IMG/VR virus record: IMGVR_UViG_3300046463_000548
Location: 32,001-96,000 of that record
Origin: a virus
Length of the DNA: 64,000 nt
Strand: one strand, 5' to 3'
Part shown: positions 5,604 to 47,844 of the stretch, piece by piece
Position numbering within the stretch: the first letter of the stretch is position 1
Layout of the letters: each line of letters begins with the position of its first letter
Notes under the pieces: model-generated
What the model was told of the DNA's origin: nothing
The model's database searches: none
Seen by the model: only the letters and a program-made list of their open reading frames with translations
Program-made: the position numbers and the translations under genes

Positions 5604-6739
5604 TTGCTCATCTCCTTGATGAGCGTGTACGCCTCAGCCGACAGCAGATCGGTTGCCGGAACTTGAAAGCTCATGGCTTCGGCCGCAATCTTGGTGATGC
5701 GTGAGTTGACCAGCGCGAGCGTTGACAGAGTCGGCTGGAACTCCTTGACCGCAGCGCTCAGTTTCTTGTTCGACTCGTTCCACCACACCTTGCGATGTTT
5801 CTCACCCTTCAGGACCTTGACGTTCAACAGGAGCTGAGCGCCCCACGTCACTTTCTTCATGAACTGGAAGGGATCGGACACGTCCATCAACGCGCGGTGA
5901 GCGGGTCCGAATTGCCCTGCGTACAGCGCGATGAGGAAATCGACGGCCAGCTTGTCGTCACTTGATTCCAACGACGACAGAACGTCACCGAGCGCTTCGA
6001 TAGACAGAAGGGCGGGCTTCTTGCCTTCCACGCCGTCGTAGTACTGCTGCAGGCCCTGGATCATGTTCGCGAGCGTACGCATAGAACTTTCCGACGCACG
6101 AGCTACCTGACGGAGAAGATCGCGATCTTCGTCCAACAGATACGTCAGCTTCTCGCCCTTTGCGACGCGGATCGCATACTTCAGCATGTCGTCTTCTGAC
6201 GGTGCCTGAAGGTGAAAGACCGTGCAGCGTGAGAGCAGGGCGCGGCCATGATTCGATGAGTTGAATTTCTCAGGCTCCGACGAGCCGAAAATCCACGTCG
6301 TGTGCGAACTGGGCTCTTCGACCGGCTTCAGCAGACCCTGAGCAGCCGTTGCGTTCGACATGAACTGCTGCGCTTCGTCCACGAGAATGAAACGGCGCTT
6401 GGAACCCATCGGCTTGAATTTCGACACACGCTCCAGATCGCGTACGTCCTCGATTGAGCGCTGAGTTGCAGCGTTCAGTTCCTTGTAGTCCTGCTGCTCT
6501 GCAACCGGCTTTTCATTCACAGCAGCCGCCAGACAGCGGGCGAGTGTTGTCTTGCCCGCTGAGAACGGACCGAAGATCGCAATAGCGTTCGGAATCTTGC
6601 CGGTGTTGACCATGCCGCGCATCCGCGTAACGGCTGCTTCCTGACCGATCACCCGATCTAGTGTCTGCGGCCGGTACTTGCGGTGAAGCGCGTTTTCTTC
6701 AGGGTCGGGAACTGCTGCTGCAGGTTTCTTGGTTGCCAT
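5600..6739 (-). CDS. Clamp-loader AAA+ ATPase, DNA polymerase III gamma/tau (DnaX)-like
   Basis: KYRPQTLDRVIGQE, Walker A GPFSAGKTT, Walker B ILVDEAQ, SRC motif. Confidence 0.9.
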   Translation of the reverse strand: MATKKPAAAVPDPEENALHRKYRPQTLDRVIGQEAAVTRMRGMVNTGKIPNAIAIFGPFSAGKTTLARCLAAAVNEKPVAEQQDYKELNAATQRSIEDVRDLERVSKFKPMGSKRRFILVDEAQQFMSNATAAQGLLKPVEEPSSHTTWIFGSSEPEKFNSSNHGRALLSRCTVFHLQAPSEDDMLKYAIRVAKGEKLTYLLDEDRDLLRQVARASESSMRTLANMIQGLQQYYDGVEGKKPALLSIEALGDVLSSLESSDDKLAVDFLIALYAGQFGPAHRALMDVSDPFQFMKKVTWGAQLLLNVKVLKGEKHRKVWWNESNKKLSAAVKEFQPTLSTLALVNSRITKIAAEAMSFQVPATDLLSAEAYTLIKEMSK

Positions 6740-6742
6740 GTT

Positions 6743-6991
6743 TTATTCGTCTGAGTCGTTCGTCGGTTCGTAGCGTTTGATTTCGCGGTCGATTGCATCC
6801 TCCACCGCGTTCCCGATGCGCTTCGGAATCACCCTTCTGTACATATCCATATCGGCACCGGGCGGCACGCTGTACGTCTCAGTAATGCCCATGCTCACCG
6901 GTTCGAATTTCGGTACCTGCACCGTTTTGTGGATCGTTATCGTTATCGAATCCGGTGTCGGGATCGGCGTAGATTTGGTGGAAGTCACCAT
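6743..6991 (-). CDS. Hypothetical protein (start uncertain, 6991 or 7075)
   Basis: Protein-like C-terminal part (ITITIHKTVQVPKFEPV...) ending just upstream of the clamp-loader gene. Confidence 0.55.
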   Translation of the reverse strand: MVTSTKSTPIPTPDSITITIHKTVQVPKFEPVSMGITETYSVPPGADMDMYRRVIPKRIGNAVEDAIDREIKRYEPTNDSDE

Positions 6992-7118
6992 AGAGTTCTG
7001 CCCATTCTGTGGACGGTCTAAACATCGTCCGTTGCTTACGTTTGCGCTGGCGTTCGTAGTCTGCCTGGAAGTCATCCAGTAGCTGTTTGCGCAGCGCTAC
7101 CCATTCACTTAGCTGCAT
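6879..7118 (-). CDS. Hypothetical protein
   Basis: 79-aa ORF overlapping the end of the Cas4-like gene and the start of the next ORF. Confidence 0.5.
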   Translation of the reverse strand: MQLSEWVALRKQLLDDFQADYERQRKRKQRTMFRPSTEWAELYGDFHQIYADPDTGFDNDNDPQNGAGTEIRTGEHGHY

Positions 7119-8007
7119 CCTTCAACTCTCTATTTACGAAAGCCCTCAGAGGCAGGTGATCGGACTGCTTGCCCAACCGGTACGCCTGCTTGAGTTGGTT
7201 GTACAGAACCTCGTCGTCCTTCTTGCAGACCGAGCACATGTCATTCGTGCACTTGTCGTATTCGAGCAGTGCCTTCACGTCGCTCCATGTCTCCGCATCC
7301 AGTGCGTCGTTGTGCGCGCGTCGATACCGTTTGATCCGGCGCAATACCTCTTCCCGTTTCGTATCGGTCAGAAGCCGTGCATACACGGGCGGTTCAACGC
7401 TGGGGTTGTCACGGAGAATGAACGCGTCCATGAATCCTTCGATCTTCTTTCCATACTGAATTTCGAAGAGGACTGCATAGACCTCGATCTGTTCGATATA
7501 GGCGGCACCCGGATTAGTCTTTTTGTTGGGCGCGGCCTTCACTGATGTCGTTTTGAAATCGAGAATCCACAACTTCCCTTTCTCATCTACGTACACCGCG
7601 TCGATGTGTCCCTTCATCCCCTTCGTGTCGATCCGCACCTCGTGATACTTCGTCGGAAATCCGCAGCACTCGTGCTTCAGTGACAGGCGGTGCCACTTCC
7701 CGCATTCGAGGCAGTGGTAGTCAGCGAGAAACCGGCCGCTCGCCGCGAGATACGACTGCATAACGTCGTGCACCACTGTTCCAACGCGCGTGTAGAAAGC
7801 GGTGCGCATCGACTGCGGTCGGTTCAAGCCGTATGAGGCGTGAGTAATGAAAAATTCGCGAGGACAAAAGGGGAGTTGTGAGGCGCGCAGCGAGAGGATT
7901 CGCATCGGTTCAACGCGCTCCATCATCACCGTGTTTTCAAGCGCGTTCGAATAAACGCGAAAGAAATCTTTGGCTATAGAAACAGATGTTAGGGGCCTCA
8001 CGCGCAT
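7105..8007 (-). CDS. Cas4-like PD-(D/E)XK exonuclease
   Basis: SQLPFCPR, GTVVH, GHIDAV, DFKT, QIEVYA and C-terminal CTNDMCSVC (1+3 Cys Fe-S pattern); extra CLEC...HECC insert. Confidence 0.85.
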   Translation of the reverse strand: MRVRPLTSVSIAKDFFRVYSNALENTVMMERVEPMRILSLRASQLPFCPREFFITHASYGLNRPQSMRTAFYTRVGTVVHDVMQSYLAASGRFLADYHCLECGKWHRLSLKHECCGFPTKYHEVRIDTKGMKGHIDAVYVDEKGKLWILDFKTTSVKAAPNKKTNPGAAYIEQIEVYAVLFEIQYGKKIEGFMDAFILRDNPSVEPPVYARLLTDTKREEVLRRIKRYRRAHNDALDAETWSDVKALLEYDKCTNDMCSVCKKDDEVLYNQLKQAYRLGKQSDHLPLRAFVNRELKDAAK

Positions 8008-27462: not shown

Positions 27463-28273
27463 AGCATTGCGCAACGAGCTACTGCAGGAAGCGGAACGGC
27501 TCAACCGGCCGACAGGCCAACTGGGGCGTATTGCGCGCAAATTGACTGCGATTCTTGAAGAGGAATTGACGCCAGAACAGGCTGGGAGTACTCCGGCTAA
27601 CAGATGGGCCAAAGAGGGCGAAGCGGACCCGCACGGCACGTCCTATGACTGCGAGCGGGCATCTTTGACGCTGGGCCAATACACGGATGACGAATTGGCG
27701 AACGGGGTTTTCCTGAACGCCGATCAGCCGATGAACATAGAGCGCATCCTAGCTCGCGATCCGAACTATCACGCGCCGATTGCCTGGCTCACTGCAGCGA
27801 AGGACCGTATCCGTTGGCTGTCACGTGCGCTCGTGCGCGCGGAGGGGGCGTCGCTTCCGTCGATCAATATCCGGTGCGAGACAACCTGCGACGGAGTCAT
27901 GGGAACAACGACGCTCAACGTGGTTCGGGTCGAGCGAGAGGATGACGGCAGCCTAACGGCAGTCACAGACTACTGGCCGAACGCCCACAGCCAGAAAGCG
28001 TTTCTTCGGGAGTTGATTCCGCAGCTTGCGGCTCTCTACCCAGAGAACGTCGGATGGGACTCTGGCTGGCGGTCAGCGTGCACGCGTGTTCTCAATGAGT
28101 TGGAAAAACGGGATACGTCGGCAACCATGACTTCCGCTCCGAGCGCGGGGATTTCGCTGACGCCTGCTCAGTGGGCTGACGTTTATTACTTCGCTCGCGC
28201 GTCTGAAATCGGTGAATTTTTGGGGCGTGCCGAGGAAGTTTTTAACGCCTCACTTGGGGAGAAGCGCCAATGA
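27443..28273 (+). CDS. Mosaic hypothetical phage protein
   Basis: Appears multi-domain; AAKDRIRWLSRAL segment. Confidence 0.65.
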   Translation: MNKTKIEALRNELLQEAERLNRPTGQLGRIARKLTAILEEELTPEQAGSTPANRWAKEGEADPHGTSYDCERASLTLGQYTDDELANGVFLNADQPMNIERILARDPNYHAPIAWLTAAKDRIRWLSRALVRAEGASLPSINIRCETTCDGVMGTTTLNVVRVEREDDGSLTAVTDYWPNAHSQKAFLRELIPQLAALYPENVGWDSGWRSACTRVLNELEKRDTSATMTSAPSAGISLTPAQWADVYYFARASEIGEFLGRAEEVFNASLGEKRQ

Positions 28274-28719
28274 ATCGAGAGTGCCTGTACAAGCTGATTC
28301 GAAGTTTCGGTTACACCACCGCTCCGCAGACAGACGAACTGGTTGGCGCGATTTTCTCAGCCATGCCCCCGTCAGAACCAGTCTATGAGGCGATGGCCAC
28401 GGACGAGGATCACATCGAAAACGGTCCGAAAGACATCTGGATGGATTGTGAACGCGTGTTCTTTGACCAGATGCAGGCACGTGAGGATATGCGAACGTGC
28501 ATCCTGTACACGGCACCACCATCAGACAAGTTCGTGAGCATCGAACTGCTCAAGGAGAAGGTTGAGAAGATGAAGGAGCCGCTCGATTCCAGCGTGACGC
28601 AGGAGCGGAGTAGCGGGTGGCGAGCGGCAGTGGAAAGCTTCGAGATTGAGTTCATTCCGGAGGCTAGAGAAGCGCACGCTGCGTTCTGGCGAGCGGCTGC
28701 GAAAGGGAGCAAATCATGA
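28270..28719 (+). CDS. Hypothetical protein
   Basis: ATGA-coupled; LYTAPP motif common in Ea22-like mosaic proteins. Confidence 0.6.
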   Translation: MNRECLYKLIRSFGYTTAPQTDELVGAIFSAMPPSEPVYEAMATDEDHIENGPKDIWMDCERVFFDQMQAREDMRTCILYTAPPSDKFVSIELLKEKVEKMKEPLDSSVTQERSSGWRAAVESFEIEFIPEAREAHAAFWRAAAKGSKS

Positions 28720-31851: not shown

Positions 31852-32145
31852 ATGGCGGGTCAATATCTTGCACTTTGTCAGCGATGCAACGGCACCGGCC
31901 GGTATGATCGCGGTGCCTGTTTTGGTTGCCGCCCCTTCGGATCGTTGGGTTGGGTCCGGCGTGTGACCCGGGCGCGGGACGGTGCACAGGTTACCGCGAT
32001 CAGGGATGAAGCGGAAGGCCGGATTGACTGGGTCGTGATTTACGGCGCAACTCCAAAGCAGGCTGTGCAGATCGTGCAGCGGCAGATGCGTGTAGCACAG
32101 AAGCCCGGTGCGCTGATCGAAAGCGTGCGGGCCGTAGCTCTTTGA
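31852..32145 (+). CDS. Zinc-finger hypothetical protein
   Basis: CQRCNGTG...CFGC. Confidence 0.65.
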   Translation: MAGQYLALCQRCNGTGRYDRGACFGCRPFGSLGWVRRVTRARDGAQVTAIRDEAEGRIDWVVIYGATPKQAVQIVQRQMRVAQKPGALIESVRAVAL

Positions 32146-42276: not shown

Positions 42277-42786
42277 CTAGTTGGTCGCTTCCGCTTTCAA
42301 CTGAGGGCCGAACGACAGGGGCAGCGGGTCGGCTGCTAGCTCGGTGTTTTTCTGCTCGACCCACAAGCGTAGCTGCGCGGTGTTAGGTGCATCGTAGGAC
42401 AGCGTGAGATGCGCACGGTAGTCCGGGAACGAGTGCTGCAACCCTTCACCCAGCAACTCGGAGTGCAGCCGCTGTAGGTCCGGAGAATCGAGATAGGCAA
42501 CGAGCACCGGCCGCTGCTTGTGATCGAGCCACACCTGCAGGCTAGTCACCGATCCTTTGCACACGCGATCTGCTGGCGGCTTTACACCGAACGGAAGATC
42601 ATGCTTGTGGTAAAGCACAGTCACGTGAAAATCCGTGGAGTGGTTCGGCTTGAACGGCGCACCCGACAGAAAGTTGCCAAGACTCAGGATCGACTGCTCA
42701 TCCGGATCGGCCCACACGTAGAGTCCGGAGCCCGAATCAGCCTCCCGGATTTGATCGTAGAGAATCTGCGCTTCTATCTTGAACAT
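42277..42786 (-). CDS. acb1: Acb1 / T4 gp57B-like 2H phosphoesterase (anti-CBASS nuclease)
   Basis: GLYV N-terminal motif, HVTVLY and HLTLSY HxT pair, LQVW...VLVAYLDS..L..LH...G..HSFPDY..H pattern as recalled for T4 57B. Confidence 0.8.
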   Translation of the reverse strand: MFKIEAQILYDQIREADSGSGLYVWADPDEQSILSLGNFLSGAPFKPNHSTDFHVTVLYHKHDLPFGVKPPADRVCKGSVTSLQVWLDHKQRPVLVAYLDSPDLQRLHSELLGEGLQHSFPDYRAHLTLSYDAPNTAQLRLWVEQKNTELAADPLPLSFGPQLKAEATN

Positions 42787-42898: not shown

Positions 42899-43465
42899 TC
42901 AACTCCATTTGATCGACATGATTTCATCGATGTCCTTTGCTGAAGCCAACTTGGCCTTTAGCTTTGAACGCGTCTGGAAAGCCTCCCACCCTTGTGCGGT
43001 TATGGCTGCGTTTAAGCCCTGAATATCTTTCAGTGTGAAGGGAACCGGGGTGTTATCTGACGATATCCAGTAGAACCCGCTGGGAGTTTCGCCTAGGATG
43101 GAATACGATTGCGCTGCTCTTGCAACAGATGCCGCACTTTCTGCATCAGCCTCAAACTTCTTGGTCACACCCCCCTCTGTAGTGAAGGAGATGTCGCTGA
43201 CCACAGCGGAGTTGTAAGAAGCAGTTATCGTCCTCTTCTGTGCTCCGCGTGCCTGCGACAACAGGAATTCAGGCGAGGGCGGAGATAGCTTGTCGTCATT
43301 TACTGTCCAGCCGCCTTGCACCGCGAGACAGGCTTGCCATTCGTCATGGCTCAGGGCAATCGCTTCTACGCCTTCTGGCACTGGACTGTCAGTGCTATCG
43401 TAGAAGGCAACGATAACCCCATTCTTATCATATGCTGCGTACTTCTGACCCATGTCGGTCTCCAT
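42899..43465 (-). CDS. Tail fibre assembly protein (DUF4376-like)
   Basis: Follows the fibre gene; FYD...P...WQACL; WISSDNTPVPFT. Confidence 0.75.
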   Translation of the reverse strand: METDMGQKYAAYDKNGVIVAFYDSTDSPVPEGVEAIALSHDEWQACLAVQGGWTVNDDKLSPPSPEFLLSQARGAQKRTITASYNSAVVSDISFTTEGGVTKKFEADAESAASVARAAQSYSILGETPSGFYWISSDNTPVPFTLKDIQGLNAAITAQGWEAFQTRSKLKAKLASAKDIDEIMSIKWS

Positions 43466-45084
43466 TAATAGCCTATTGCGAGCCAGTTAGCACCTTTCTG
43501 ATCGGCTCCGATAACAGCGGACGAATTTGTGAAACTCACAACTCCGCTGTAGTTGTTGTTGGCAACGTTTCCGGGGCCAAACAAAGAGACGCTGTTTAAT
43601 ACCCTCAAGCAAGCGTTAGGGAACGTAATAGGGAAATTAACGGTGGGGAACGTTTGATTGCCGGGGGTGGTGCCCCACTGGAGAATTAGTCCATCTGGTA
43701 AAACGTCATACCCGTTCCCTGCGAACAGCGTGCCGCTACCTAGTTTTCCGCGCATTGAAAACGGGAACCAGTCCGTCCAGTTAGCACCGTTGTTGTAGCC
43801 TTGTCGCCAGTACGGGGGATACCCACCGACACCGTGACTGTCGCCACCGCCTGTATTCCACGGATACGCGATCTGCGTGATGTCTGAGCCGTGCGCGCCG
43901 GACACACCGTCACCGATGTTGTGAACCCAGATGTTGCAGTTCCAGTTGATCGGCATGTTGGCAGGTAGGTTGCCCGAAGTCGCAATGTACAGCCCAGATG
44001 CAAGCGCGTTGCTGTTCAGATCGTCCGCACTGGTCAGTTGGCGTCCGCTGCTCGTTGACGGGCTCTGAAGCATGCCGACCGCTTGAATCACGCCCGGTTG
44101 CGGCATGTACAGGCCGGAACCACCGTACGCGAGACCAGGTGTGCCCACAGTGGCGAGAGGCGCGCTCGGAGGCGGGTCGATGATCTGCGAGTAGTAAATC
44201 TTCAGTCCCGATTGCGTGGACGAATACAGACGGCAGTGGCTACCAACAGCCGGTGAATTCAGCAGCGGGATATTGCTGTACGTGCCATCGTTCGTCACGT
44301 TCAGATTGAACCGGTAGTTAGCGCCTGACGTAACGATGCTCGACACTGACCGGAAAAATCCGTCCGGTGTTTCGAGGACCCACTGACGATTAGCAGATGC
44401 GAGCGCAGCAGGCGTGAACAGGGCCGGTGAAAACTCAACCCATGTCGTGGACGAGTTCAGGACCGGTGCCGCGTTGTTTACCTGATAGTAGGTCGTGCCC
44501 AGTGTCCACGCTGAGTCACTCGAATTTTGCAGGAGCGACGAATCACCTGAGGGGCTTAGCTCGCGCACAACGTACAGCGGAACATCGGGGTTAGCCGATA
44601 CACCGGGCGGGTACACGTCGGACCACTGGTAGATGTCCAAGACCGCAGGAGGTGCACTGACTGTGTCGATCTGGAACACGGCGACCGACTGCTCCAACTT
44701 CAAAAGGCAGTTGAACGTGTAGCTCGTTACGACGTTCGTGCCCAAGCTCGAATACTTCGTTTGCGGCTCGTCAAACACACCCTTTGCAAACATCACACCG
44801 CCATCCAGATACAGCGCGACTTCACCGAACTGGAAAGGACCGGCAGCGACCGGAATCTGACAGATGATGTTGAGCGTGTTGTTGCCGATGTATTCGTAAC
44901 TCGTTGGCACACCTGTGAAAAGCAGGTTGCCATTCAGACCGGCATCAGTGCGTTGCGGATCGTAGCCATAGGCCGATCCAACTTCAAAGCTGGTGATGTG
45001 AACGTAGGGACCTTCAGGCATCGCGGTTGACGCGACAGCAAGCCCCGCATTGGTGATCACCAGAAGTGGTGTGCCGTTACTCAT
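43465..45084 (-). CDS. Tail fibre protein E
   Basis: Same N-terminal anchor as fibres A and B; C-terminal LPDGLILQWG...FPITFPNAC...WLAIGY. Confidence 0.88.
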   Translation of the reverse strand: MSNGTPLLVITNAGLAVASTAMPEGPYVHITSFEVGSAYGYDPQRTDAGLNGNLLFTGVPTSYEYIGNNTLNIICQIPVAAGPFQFGEVALYLDGGVMFAKGVFDEPQTKYSSLGTNVVTSYTFNCLLKLEQSVAVFQIDTVSAPPAVLDIYQWSDVYPPGVSANPDVPLYVVRELSPSGDSSLLQNSSDSAWTLGTTYYQVNNAAPVLNSSTTWVEFSPALFTPAALASANRQWVLETPDGFFRSVSSIVTSGANYRFNLNVTNDGTYSNIPLLNSPAVGSHCRLYSSTQSGLKIYYSQIIDPPPSAPLATVGTPGLAYGGSGLYMPQPGVIQAVGMLQSPSTSSGRQLTSADDLNSNALASGLYIATSGNLPANMPINWNCNIWVHNIGDGVSGAHGSDITQIAYPWNTGGGDSHGVGGYPPYWRQGYNNGANWTDWFPFSMRGKLGSGTLFAGNGYDVLPDGLILQWGTTPGNQTFPTVNFPITFPNACLRVLNSVSLFGPGNVANNNYSGVVSFTNSSAVIGADQKGANWLAIGY

Positions 45085-45139
45085 TTACATACCTCTGTTA
45101 ATGATTGAAGTGCGGGCTCTCGCATTAGTGGTTTACCCG

Positions 45140-45152
45140 CAAAATGTTGATA
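45140..45152 (-). promoter_or_regulatory. IHF-binding site
   Basis: TATCAACATTTTG matches the consensus WATCAANNNNTTR. Confidence 0.55.
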
Positions 45153-45480
45153 AAATCCATTATGTCAAGTTCTGCTGCAACGCACCAAATGAATGAAATC
45201 AAATACATAGGTCAAGTAGCTGACCCTTTAATGAGTAAAAAGCGACAAAACAACACTTATTGCGTGCCCAGGCAACCAATATGCAATTGTTTTTCTGTGC
45301 AGCTATTGACAGTTTGTGCAACCCGTGCAGGTGCGAGTCATCGATGTCGAATCGAGCGGAAAAAGTTATCCACACGGCACTCAAGCCGCGTAGTTATCCA
45401 CGTGCAGGGGAGTTGTTCACAATGCGTGAGGCTTATCCAACGCTTCGCGACTTATGCACAGCGTTGGAGCGTTATGCGTA
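45140..45480. other. oriC/datA-like locus: IHF site, AT-rich tract and DnaA-box array
   Basis: TTATCCACA 45366, TTATCCACG 45394, TTGTTCACA 45413, TTATCCAAC 45433, TTATGCACA 45452, TTATGCGTA 45472; all in the same orientation. Confidence 0.7.
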
Positions 45481-46593
45481 CTGCTGCAGGATGTCGGAGA
45501 GGCGTTCCATGTTCGTGTGCAGCCGGAAGTCTTGCCGCTCGCGTGTCGTGTGCACGTAGCCAGCCGGACGTGTCGAACCATCGAAGAACACCAGGTACAG
45601 ATACTTGTAGCCCTTGTGCAGGGCCCCGCGAGCCTTGCGCGTAATCTCGTCTGTCACGCTTCCCCTATCGGCCGGGGGCTCGCTTGTGAGGTCGATCACC
45701 AGACCGCGCTTTTCGATCCACAGATCAGGCGCGTAGTCGCGTCCTTCCGAGCGATACGTTGGGCCGGATGTATCGATAGATTGCGCAGCGATTCCCTCAG
45801 TCAGGAGCCACGGAATCGCCACCTTTTGGGTGCCAACGACCAACCACGAAGCGCCGCCCGAATCGAGCCGTTGTGGGGCGTTTTTGAAGGCCGCACGCAG
45901 CGCTTCGACGGGTTCCAGAGGCGCGACCGGCAGCGCCTTTTTCTTGATACGCACGGGCACCGGCAGATCGTCTTCAACTTCGATCTTCAGGTTGTGTGTT
46001 GAGTCCCGGAGCTTTTCCCGCACCTCCCGCCGTTGGCTCGAACTGGTGCGTTTGCCGTTGCTGCGTTCTAGCTCGTTGCGCCGGTTTGATTCCACGCGTT
46101 TGGCTATCGCTTCCGGACGTGATCGCGGATCGACGGATGTCCCGTTGGAGCGTTCAAGCTCGCGATCCATGATCATTTCTTTGTACGTCTTCGAGCGACG
46201 TAGCGCGCGGCTTCGGTTTCTGAGTTCCGGCCGCTGCGCTACGTTCGTGTACTTGCCGCCTGATCGTTCTAGCTCGTTGCGTCTGCGCGTCTCGATCTTC
46301 GCCGGGTCTTTCCACGAGCACGCAGCAGAGCAGTAGCTGATGTACTTCAGTGCGCGTTTATCGAACCGGACCGTTTCGTTGCAGCCCGGAGTCTTGCACG
46401 TTGATCGCGCGTTAGGAAACAGGTGCGTGTAGAACTCAAGCTGATTGAACCGTGAGCCCAATGCGTCCTGCAATTCACTAAACAGTTCCGCGTCTATACG
46501 GTTGCGCAGCCATGCACTGAATCCACCTGGTCCGCTAGGTTTGGATAGCTGCAGCAGCCCCCTCACATCCTTTATAACAAGTTTCTGGTCCAT
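45472..46593 (-). CDS. Homing-endonuclease-like DNA-binding protein with a degenerate PD-(D/E)XK domain
   Basis: Zn finger CKTPGC...CSAAC, three ELERSxG basic repeats, YAPDLWI...VIDLTS. Confidence 0.6.
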   Translation of the reverse strand: MDQKLVIKDVRGLLQLSKPSGPGGFSAWLRNRIDAELFSELQDALGSRFNQLEFYTHLFPNARSTCKTPGCNETVRFDKRALKYISYCSAACSWKDPAKIETRRRNELERSGGKYTNVAQRPELRNRSRALRRSKTYKEMIMDRELERSNGTSVDPRSRPEAIAKRVESNRRNELERSNGKRTSSSQRREVREKLRDSTHNLKIEVEDDLPVPVRIKKKALPVAPLEPVEALRAAFKNAPQRLDSGGASWLVVGTQKVAIPWLLTEGIAAQSIDTSGPTYRSEGRDYAPDLWIEKRGLVIDLTSEPPADRGSVTDEITRKARGALHKGYKYLYLVFFDGSTRPAGYVHTTRERQDFRLHTNMERLSDILQQYA

Positions 46594-46725
46594 CTACATA
46601 TCCCGCAGTTTGCTTGCATATAGCTCAAATTGGGGTATGTGCGTGTAGCGCTTCAGATGTGTTGGGCTATACAACGTGCAATCTATATAGCGTTCGGCTG
46701 CTTTGCTTTGCTTTGCGTTTTGTGT

Positions 46726-47844
46726 TCAGAACAGACGGCTAGACTGTATGTTCAGTGCACGTTGCTGCTGATCCGATTGTAGACCGAACACGTAGTTGCG
46801 GAACCCATAGTTGATATCGAACATCACAGGGAACGACGGTTGACTGACCTTAGAGCCGGTTACCGTCAGTTGCTCTGTATCAGCCCATGACAGAGATATG
46901 ATCCCTGATTGGGTAGTTGAGTTGTTGGATGAGGGTTGCAGCGTCCCCTGTGTTTGGTTGTTACCAGCGAATCCTGAGAGCATCTTGATGAAGTACTGTC
47001 TCTGTGTAAGCTGTGCAGTAGTCGGTGAGTTAGCTGGGGTCATAAGCTTGCCGTTGATGAGGAACTGCGATCCATACTGAACAAACGACGTGCCCATTGA
47101 TCCGCTTTGTGTTCCCATGAATCCCCAGTAGGCTGACGTATCTGTCATGTTTACTGTTGAACCTAGCAGCTTGACGTAGCCATGGCTCGATGAATCCATG
47201 TTCCTCACTACATCTGCATAGATCGAATACAGAGCGATTGACGGAGTGGCTGGTGCTTGGGGGAGATTCAGGGCCACCCCTTCAAACGTGATAGACCCGC
47301 CGTACCTGTTGATTCCGTATAGAACCCATTGCGCGTTTGTTTGGCCTGTTGAGAACGTGATAGTCGGTCTCTGGAGGTCTTGCATATACTGTGATTTACA
47401 CTGTGTTCCGGAGACCAGCGTGTCGAAATCCCCGTAGTTGGAATCTCCGTAGAACGTGAATACGAGGTTAGCTCCGGTGTAGATCGCAACGTCTGACTGA
47501 GGGAACGCAAAGGTCTGGGAGGCGAGTAGCGCGATATACACAGAGCCCGTTATCTGCTGATTCGGAAACAGCGATTGGGCTGCTTGTACGGCTTTGGCTA
47601 TAGTCTGGAACGGCTGTGCTTTGGTACCCGGGTTCGTGTCTGAACCTGAGTTGGACACGTAGAAAGCGGTGAACGAACCGAAGTAGGAGTGGCTCCCAAC
47701 GTACACGCCATCTGCATTAGATTGAACGAGGTTACCGGGTTGCTGTGAAATCGGCACCTGAGTCGGGGGGATGGTTGCTGACGGGTCCATCGGCCGCGTT
47801 ACCTGAAGGGCTGAATCGTAAAACGAAGGAAGCTGGTATGTCAT
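46726..47844 (-). CDS. Baseplate-associated spike/fibre protein (pectin-lyase/DUF1565-like N-terminal motif)
   Basis: FYVSNSGSDTNPGTKAQPFQTIAKAV. Confidence 0.65.
   Translation of the reverse strand: MTYQLPSFYDSALQVTRPMDPSATIPPTQVPISQQPGNLVQSNADGVYVGSHSYFGSFTAFYVSNSGSDTNPGTKAQPFQTIAKAVQAAQSLFPNQQITGSVYIALLASQTFAFPQSDVAIYTGANLVFTFYGDSNYGDFDTLVSGTQCKSQYMQDLQRPTITFSTGQTNAQWVLYGINRYGGSITFEGVALNLPQAPATPSIALYSIYADVVRNMDSSSHGYVKLLGSTVNMTDTSAYWGFMGTQSGSMGTSFVQYGSQFLINGKLMTPANSPTTAQLTQRQYFIKMLSGFAGNNQTQGTLQPSSNNSTTQSGIISLSWADTEQLTVTGSKVSQPSFPVMFDINYGFRNYVFGLQSDQQQRALNIQSSRLF

Follow-up and report, generated by a model that had tools for sequence, protein, structure and literature searches.

A conserved DUF7487 clade with an altered PD-(D/E)XK active site ahead of the tail-fibre gene of phiRSL1-like jumbo phages

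Several homing-endonuclease scaffolds are known to serve a second, non-cleaving role: I-TevI is a transcriptional autorepressor, and the LAGLIDADG maturases and WhiA are further cases, so that catalytically dead derivatives of homing endonucleases are already known in other folds. Among nucleases of the PD-(D/E)XK fold, mutants of T7 endonuclease I at E65 and K67 bind DNA and do not cleave it, and BamHI (E-x-E) and BglII (E-x-Q) are enzymes without the canonical lysine. DUF7487 (Pfam PF24308) is a catalogued, uncharacterised viral endonuclease-like family that is widespread in large phages and giant viruses; some of its members bear the annotation of a putative homing endonuclease (PHROG 3339; F-LimVIII), and in a literature search we found no paper naming it. 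Here we describe a DUF7487-related protein encoded in a stretch of 64,000 nucleotides (the window), which covers positions 32,001 to 96,000 of the 153.7-kb IMG/VR virus record IMGVR_UViG_3300046463_000548 (completeness estimate ~63%). The gene is an open reading frame (ORF) of 373 amino acids (aa) on the minus strand (45472..46593, ATG to TAA), and its product is homing-endonuclease-like with a degenerate active site. The reading that we favour, with moderate confidence, is a domesticated descendant of a DUF7487 homing endonuclease that most likely acts as a non-cleaving, sequence-specific DNA-binding protein and is kept under selection, with local regulation as our best guess for its role.

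The family of the window protein was identified through its homologues. An exhaustive phmmer search with the window protein returned 17 representatives, among them the nearly full-length matches P0005 (E 1e-70), P0007 (2e-67) and P0006 (2e-58), all three of which exceed the Pfam cut-off for DUF7487. This family is the match for every scanned homologue outside the immediate clade of the window protein (P0005-P0020), and several of these homologues also match Tn7 TnsA-N (TnsA_N) or phage endonuclease I (Phage_endo_I) weakly. In a protein atlas the window protein groups with DUF7487 clusters (score 0.94). A search of predicted viral structures (BFVD) with the whole model retrieved zinc-ribbon ‘endonuclease-like’, DUF7487 and ‘putative homing endonuclease’ proteins from large phages and giant viruses, with E values down to 1e-13. 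The match to PHROG 3339, labelled ‘homing endonuclease’, is marginal (E 0.003), and the N-terminal module recurs in F-LimVIII, a putative homing endonuclease of Dickeya phage LIMEstone1. NCBIfam returned nothing for the window protein, a tblastn search against GenBank phages gave no match, and the PDB sequences yielded chance matches only (E 0.6). A second DUF7487 gene is present in the same genome outside the window (G000:C1 ~27493-28317, minus strand; L021 1372-2196). Its 274-aa product carries intact QGYE/PD/EVK motifs and a different zinc ribbon of the CPxHG/DUF723 type at the N-terminus, and is probably an active homing endonuclease of the same phage.

The domain architecture was derived from an AlphaFold2 (AF2) model built from 20 homologues, with a mean predicted local distance difference test score (pLDDT) of 85.8. 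The ORF, a zinc finger and three basic ELERSxG repeats had been described in an initial annotation made from the letters of the window, and all of them are real. Residues 1-60 (46414..46593; all coordinates within the gene refer to the minus strand) form a four-helix N-terminal part (pLDDT ~90). They are followed by a four-Cys zinc ribbon at residues 61-98 (46300..46413), where the model places a small beta ribbon or short beta strands; C66, C71, C88 and C92, in the context CKTPGC ... YCSAAC, are nearly invariant across the 20 family members (Cys columns at least 90% conserved), and one relative gives a weak zf-FCS match. The repeats lie within residues 99-200 (45994..46299), a putative DNA-binding module with an isoelectric point (pI) of 11.4 and 30 K+R, in which the ELERSxG motifs at residues 107, 145 and 174 each open one of three helix-loop-helix repeats of the model. 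A linker (residues 201-242, 45868..45993), disordered at 203-226 with pLDDT below 50, leads to an alpha/beta C-terminal domain (residues 243-373, 45475..45867; pLDDT ~90). Modelled alone, residues 1-205 reached a pLDDT of 90.3, and a known-fold search with this N-terminal part found nothing significant (Foldseek best E 1.6; VIA-align against the PDB best Z 3.8). No Pfam match to NUMOD3-type repeats (PF07460) was obtained for the window protein; the sole link to NUMOD3 is a neighbouring cluster of the protein atlas that combines NUMOD3 with TnsA_N (score 0.90), and it is a lead only.

For the C-terminal domain, VIA-align with residues 243-373 retrieved TT1808 (Z 7.5), TnsA (Z 7.2), DrdV (Z 7.2), I-Bth0305I (Z 6.8), Vsr (Z 6.7) and I-Ssp6803I (Z 5.0), and also Hjc. 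The top 50 rows consist almost entirely of nucleases and non-catalytic proteins with the restriction-endonuclease fold (Z 5-7.7), and the top Foldseek matches are weak and belong to the same fold class. We assign the domain to the PD-(D/E)XK fold with moderate confidence, as every Z value lies below 8 and the assignment draws on the consistency of the list. A comparison of the DUF7487 family profile with T7 endonuclease I was weak (E 0.08) and placed PD...E-x-K in exact motif register onto D55, E65 and K67.

At the catalytic positions, which read E, D, E and K in the family, the window protein carries Q256 (45826-45828), D290 (45724-45726), D301 (45691-45693) and T303 (45685-45687). Its C-terminal motif reads Y-A-P-D290-LWIEKRGLVI-D301-L-T303-S, as had been noted at the outset for a motif lacking E-x-K. 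In an alignment of 20 sequences, all 16 homologues outside the clade of the window protein have E-x-K at the D-L-T position, within the pattern PD, ~10 residues, (V/I)E(V/I/T)K(S/G), and 14 of these 16 have QGYE. Compared with the PD-(D/E)XK catalytic motif, the window protein therefore retains PD290 and an acceptable acid at D301, while the lysine is replaced by T303 and the helix glutamate by Q256. The same residues, Q256, P289-D290, D301 and T303 (Q/PD/D-x-T), are found in four out of four members of what we call the Q-D-D-T clade, and in all four the two loops beside the active site are deleted. Because these features are common to the whole clade, three of the four catalytic positions appear to have changed a single time, in the clade ancestor. 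We looked for a compensating catalytic lysine and rejected each candidate: in two clade members position 295 holds R instead of K, in two position 257 holds N, and K321 is found throughout the family and is not specific to the clade. With three of four family-conserved positions changed clade-wide on a PD-(D/E)XK fold, cleavage has probably been lost, and the description as homing-endonuclease-like and nuclease-dead, with which the analysis started, is probably right.

The Q-D-D-T clade comprises four sequences, namely the window and the loci L001, L004 and L005-7, with 88, 72 and 71% protein identity of the relatives to the window protein; intact orthologues come from four further lineages (L008-12, L013, L014 and L024). 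A profile search of a 5.8-billion-protein set, aimed at widening the clade, gave at least five proteins among the matches listed. Further loci were sought by an IMG/VR scan, which gave one new locus, and by a metagenome scan, which gave none; the clade stays at four sequences. All four genes are intact, with no stops or frameshifts. The ratio of nonsynonymous to synonymous divergence (dN/dS, Nei-Gojobori) amounts to 0.10-0.18 over the whole gene and to 0.11-0.31 in the nuclease-like domain, compared with 0.11-0.16 for the upstream gene and 0.06-0.26 for the tail-fibre gene; these are rough values, as dS exceeds 1 and is saturated for most pairs. For the least saturated pair, the window and L001 (dS 0.8), dN/dS is 0.10 overall and 0.11 in the C-terminal domain. 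Among the clade members, the C-terminal domain (66-87% identity) equals the N-terminal half (69-90%) in conservation. Between the clade and the intact lineages, the N-terminal half retains 50-56% identity and the C-terminal domain 15-35%; among the intact lineages themselves the C-terminal domain shows 25-54%. Since the four genes are intact and their dN/dS resembles that of the flanking tail genes, the comparison of sequences argues for purifying selection and against decay. A gene kept in this manner presumably has a function.

The baseplate and tail proteins of the window share 51-61% identity with those of Ralstonia phage phiRSL1, Burkholderia phages BcepSaruman/Sauron and BCSR5 and Achromobacter phage Motura, and the record is a phiRSL1-like jumbo phage. 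The 373-aa ORF is flanked on both sides by baseplate/tail genes: upstream by a homologue of phiRSL1 ORF196 (46726-47844, 372 aa), with baseplate wedge genes further upstream, and downstream by the tail-fibre gene (43465-45084, 539 aa). That the ORF interrupts a run of structural genes, as had been claimed, is confirmed by phiRSL1, in which only 22 bp separate the same two flanking genes. The gene is missing from phiRSL1 and from BcepSaruman, and the same slot between the ORF196 homologue and the tail-fibre gene is occupied by orthologues in eight lineages; it thus shows the insertion between conserved genes and the presence and absence among relatives that characterise free-standing homing endonucleases. 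The stop of the gene overlaps the start codon of the tail-fibre gene by 1-11 nt in all four intact lineages and abuts it in L005 (TAAATG), an arrangement that points to coupled translation with a late structural gene. Pairwise identities and groupings of the endonuclease-like proteins equal those of both flanking genes, with the pairs (window, L001), (L004, L005) and (L013, L024). No horizontal mobility, that is, a phylogeny incongruent with the flanks, was seen in a comparison whose power is limited by few taxa and deep divergence. As identities and groupings track both neighbours, the gene gives the impression of a long-standing resident that some lineages have lost or never acquired, and not of a recent invader.

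These observations can be combined into the following proposal. The ancestor of the gene would be a free-standing homing endonuclease of DUF7487, a viral family that combines a zinc ribbon and basic helical repeats in tandem with a PD-(D/E)XK domain of the T7-endonuclease-I/TnsA type. In phiRSL1-like jumbo phages the gene would long have occupied the place directly upstream of the tail-fibre gene. In the clade ancestor the catalytic tetrad E-D-E-K would have changed to Q-D-D-T and two loops of the nuclease domain would have been shortened. The protein would then have been kept intact by purifying selection and may be made together with the late tail genes. Its basic N-terminal half could provide recognition, while the dead nuclease fold might contribute an extra DNA contact or dimerisation. 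DNA binding is suggested by the basic repeats and the zinc ribbon, by the modular logic of homing endonucleases and by the better conservation of that half. With low confidence, and by analogy, we prefer a local regulatory role: much as I-TevI represses its own gene, the protein might act on the locus that encodes it, controlling its own expression or that of the tail-fibre gene, and the site could be the conserved 21-bp motif upstream of the gene (46621-46641) or an ancestral homing site near the tail-fibre start.

Several points weigh against this proposal. The window protein itself gives no Pfam match at E ≤1 and stays below the DUF7487 gathering threshold of 27 bits, and its close relatives P0002-P0004 likewise fall below the Pfam threshold for DUF7487. 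The N-terminal half has no solved structural relative, so that DNA binding is argued from charge, the zinc ribbon and analogy. Given PD-(D/E)XK enzymes that lack the lysine, residual or altered cleavage is possible. The clade is defined by four sequences only, the dN/dS values carry the saturation stated above, and the regulatory role is a guess.

The gene stop is adjoined by five DnaA-box-like 9-mers in the same orientation (45366..45460, plus strand; starts 45366, 45394, 45413, 45433 and 45452), and a nuclease-dead protein might bind this phased, iteron-like array to form a replication origin, a nucleoprotein complex for regulation or one that titrates DnaA, an explanation that we consider unlikely. 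That the array itself is functional follows from its clear phylogenetic footprint: between the window and L001, 41 of 45 box positions are identical and only 37 of 96 spacer positions. It is the sole box cluster in the 153.7-kb record and contains, at 45366, the sole exact TTATCCACA; its spacing of 28, 19, 20 and 19 bp resembles that of iterons, and such phasing suggests a nucleoprotein array bound by host DnaA or another binder. It directly follows the gene, the last box ending 12 bp from the stop codon, in a layout of initiator next to site as in lambda, where the O gene lies beside ori, and both known arrays (window and L001) adjoin a gene of the Q-D-D-T clade. The sixth box that the initial annotation had placed over the stop codon does not hold, as TTATGCGTA (45472-45480) matches TTATCCACA at 6 of 9 positions (5 of 9 in L001, where the codons Y-A-stop dictate the sequence) and is no better than chance; it is nonetheless in phase, 20 bp past the preceding box. 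Against a partnership of protein and array, however, stands their distribution. The array is absent beside the gene in two of the four lineages of the clade, L005-7, which has no spacer, and L004, whose 236-bp spacer is free of boxes, and in all four intact lineages (L008-12, L013, L014 and L024). Distant homologues keep E-x-K and are unlinked to DnaA boxes, as the initial annotation had itself anticipated should its proposal be wrong. Neither of the complete relatives phiRSL1 and BcepSaruman has a box cluster anywhere (box counts equal those of a reversed-pattern control), so that the phage group replicates without one and the array was rejected as the conserved origin of the group. Thus neither a consistent co-occurrence of homologues with DnaA-box arrays nor action of the protein with the adjacent locus as an initiator was borne out. 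The catalytic loss is common to all four clade members; this distribution implies that it predates the array and is independent of it, and that the array is a late, lineage-specific acquisition nested inside a clade already without catalytic residues. Moreover, the boxes fit the host DnaA consensus and do not need a phage-encoded binder. A narrower version would apply to the window/L001 lineage, in which the cleavage-less descendant might have been recruited as partner of the newly acquired five-site array and, together with an AT-rich neighbouring element with IHF-like sites (element X, below), might form a phage-borne origin-like or DnaA-sequestering complex in the tail operon. We hold this to be quite unlikely, since origin binding in that lineage gained no positive support from the sequence comparisons and fails the co-occurrence test.

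The protein could also be a homing endonuclease that is still active through a non-canonical site, with D301 as second acid, water or another residue in place of the lysine, and homing into relatives that lack the gene. PD290 and an acid at 301 are indeed retained in a domain under purifying selection, the distribution is sporadic, with phiRSL1 and BcepSaruman lacking the gene at the same junction, and functional enzymes without the lysine are known. However, the three changes (E→Q, E→D and K→T) occurred together, the loops flanking the site are deleted, no clade-specific invariant lysine remains (K alternates with R at 295 and with N at 257) and the other 16 family members all keep E-x-K; in addition, the divergence matches that of the flanking genes, with no sign of recent horizontal spread. 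Continued activity therefore seems doubtful. A functionless remnant drifting neutrally after fixation would explain the loss of catalytic residues, the greater divergence of the nuclease domain than of the N-terminal half, and a window protein below Pfam detection, but it is hard to reconcile with ~30% aa divergence and a synonymous divergence of at least 0.8 across four lineages in which no stop or frameshift has appeared. The dN/dS of 0.10-0.18 equals that of the neighbouring structural genes, and both halves of the protein are equally conserved within the clade. We regard such a remnant as highly improbable, and the suggestion of a decaying mobile endonuclease was not upheld.

Two non-coding segments beside the gene are conserved. 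The upstream spacer (46594..46725, minus strand) contains the 21-bp motif ACGCACATAYCYCAATTTGAG (~46621-46641), a candidate promoter or operator that precedes the start codon by ~30-50 nt, has no second copy in the window and is conserved at all four loci of the Q-D-D-T clade, while the rest of the spacer has diverged. A related sequence, CCCAATTT, is found upstream of the intact orthologue in L008. A sigma-70 promoter scan of 44900-46900 found none, and Rfam gave only a sub-threshold snoRNA-type chance match for 44900-46800. A copy of TTGAC-N4-TGTGC at 45306 was rejected as a promoter, as it has no -10 element, unlike three real promoters bearing that motif.

The second segment, element X (~190 bp, 45140..45330), was found between the array and the tail-fibre gene in alignments with L001 (7330-7560, same orientation) and L004 (3095-3310, inverted relative to the flanking genes). 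It contains a conserved match to the integration host factor (IHF) consensus (TATCAACATTTTG, minus strand) and a GGTCA-N6-TGACC palindrome. As the core motif of element X, GTTGATAA-N3-CCATTATGTCAA, is also present in five viral contigs (L016-L020) without a homologue of the gene or its flanks, we regard the element as an independent module. In some of these contigs the core seemingly lies ~170-220 nt upstream of the start of a putative gene in the same orientation, as read from the alignment. Element X may be a portable promoter or leader, or an invertible or mobile regulatory module. A plus-strand ORF across it (45144-45644) was discarded, as alignment shows the frame to be broken in L001 and L004. 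In L001, the closest relative, ~170 bp of extra spacer before the tail-fibre start (7560-7680) are missing from the window and hold a short ORF of ~17 codons with a ribosome-binding site.

Two further genes of the tail region were observed. At the end of the tail module the window encodes a 169-aa 2H-phosphoesterase (42277-42786, minus strand) that is conserved in L001, L008 and L013; its PHROG label is ‘RNA ligase’, and the syntenic genes of relatives match Pfam Acb1 (anti-CBASS). Just past the tail-fibre/Acb1 block, L013 carries a gene for a LEM-3-like GIY-YIG nuclease (6230-7156, minus strand), another endonuclease-type insertion near the host-range module.

Fixed homing endonucleases are expected to decay; here the catalytic residues were lost, yet the gene has been kept under selection while the proteins diverged by ~30%, at a fixed position before a host-range gene. 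New here are the conserved Q-D-D-T clade of DUF7487, its fixed site ahead of the tail-fibre gene and the availability of intact orthologues and a paralogue for comparison. The altered clade and the intact orthologues at one locus, together with the intact paralogue in the same genome, make a clean natural pair, which would provide a usable system for the function of a domesticated PD-(D/E)XK homing endonuclease and a first functional handle on DUF7487. The gene and the DnaA-box array, which had looked linked, are now separated, and the array needs an explanation of its own.

Among catalogued families the window protein is closest to DUF7487, with which it has in common the zinc ribbon, the tandem basic repeats, the C-terminal nuclease fold and large myophages as hosts. 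Orthologues at 38-40% identity exceed the Pfam cut-off, whereas the window protein has Q-D-D-T in place of the E-D-E-K of the family and remains without a Pfam match. With T7 endonuclease I and TnsA it shares the fold (TnsA Z 7.2, root-mean-square deviation 3.9 over 104 residues) and the order of the motifs. Unlike in T7 endonuclease I, the equivalents of E65 and K67 are D and T; both enzymes lack the zinc-ribbon/repeat half and function in junction resolution and transposition. I-Ssp6803I (Z 5.0, 2ost) and I-Bth0305I (Z 6.8, 3r3p) are likewise phage or bacterial homing endonucleases on the restriction-endonuclease fold, and in I-Bth0305I, too, the catalytic domain at the C-terminus is joined to a DNA-binding region at the N-terminus. 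Both are intron-encoded and active, however, while the window gene is free-standing and its product has no catalytic lysine and no sequence relationship to them. In I-TevI, the LAGLIDADG maturases and WhiA the scaffold of a homing endonuclease has been kept for binding nucleic acids or for regulation, with cleavage lost or alongside. These proteins have GIY-YIG and LAGLIDADG folds; the window protein, for which regulation is proposed by analogy, would represent a comparable case on the PD-(D/E)XK fold.

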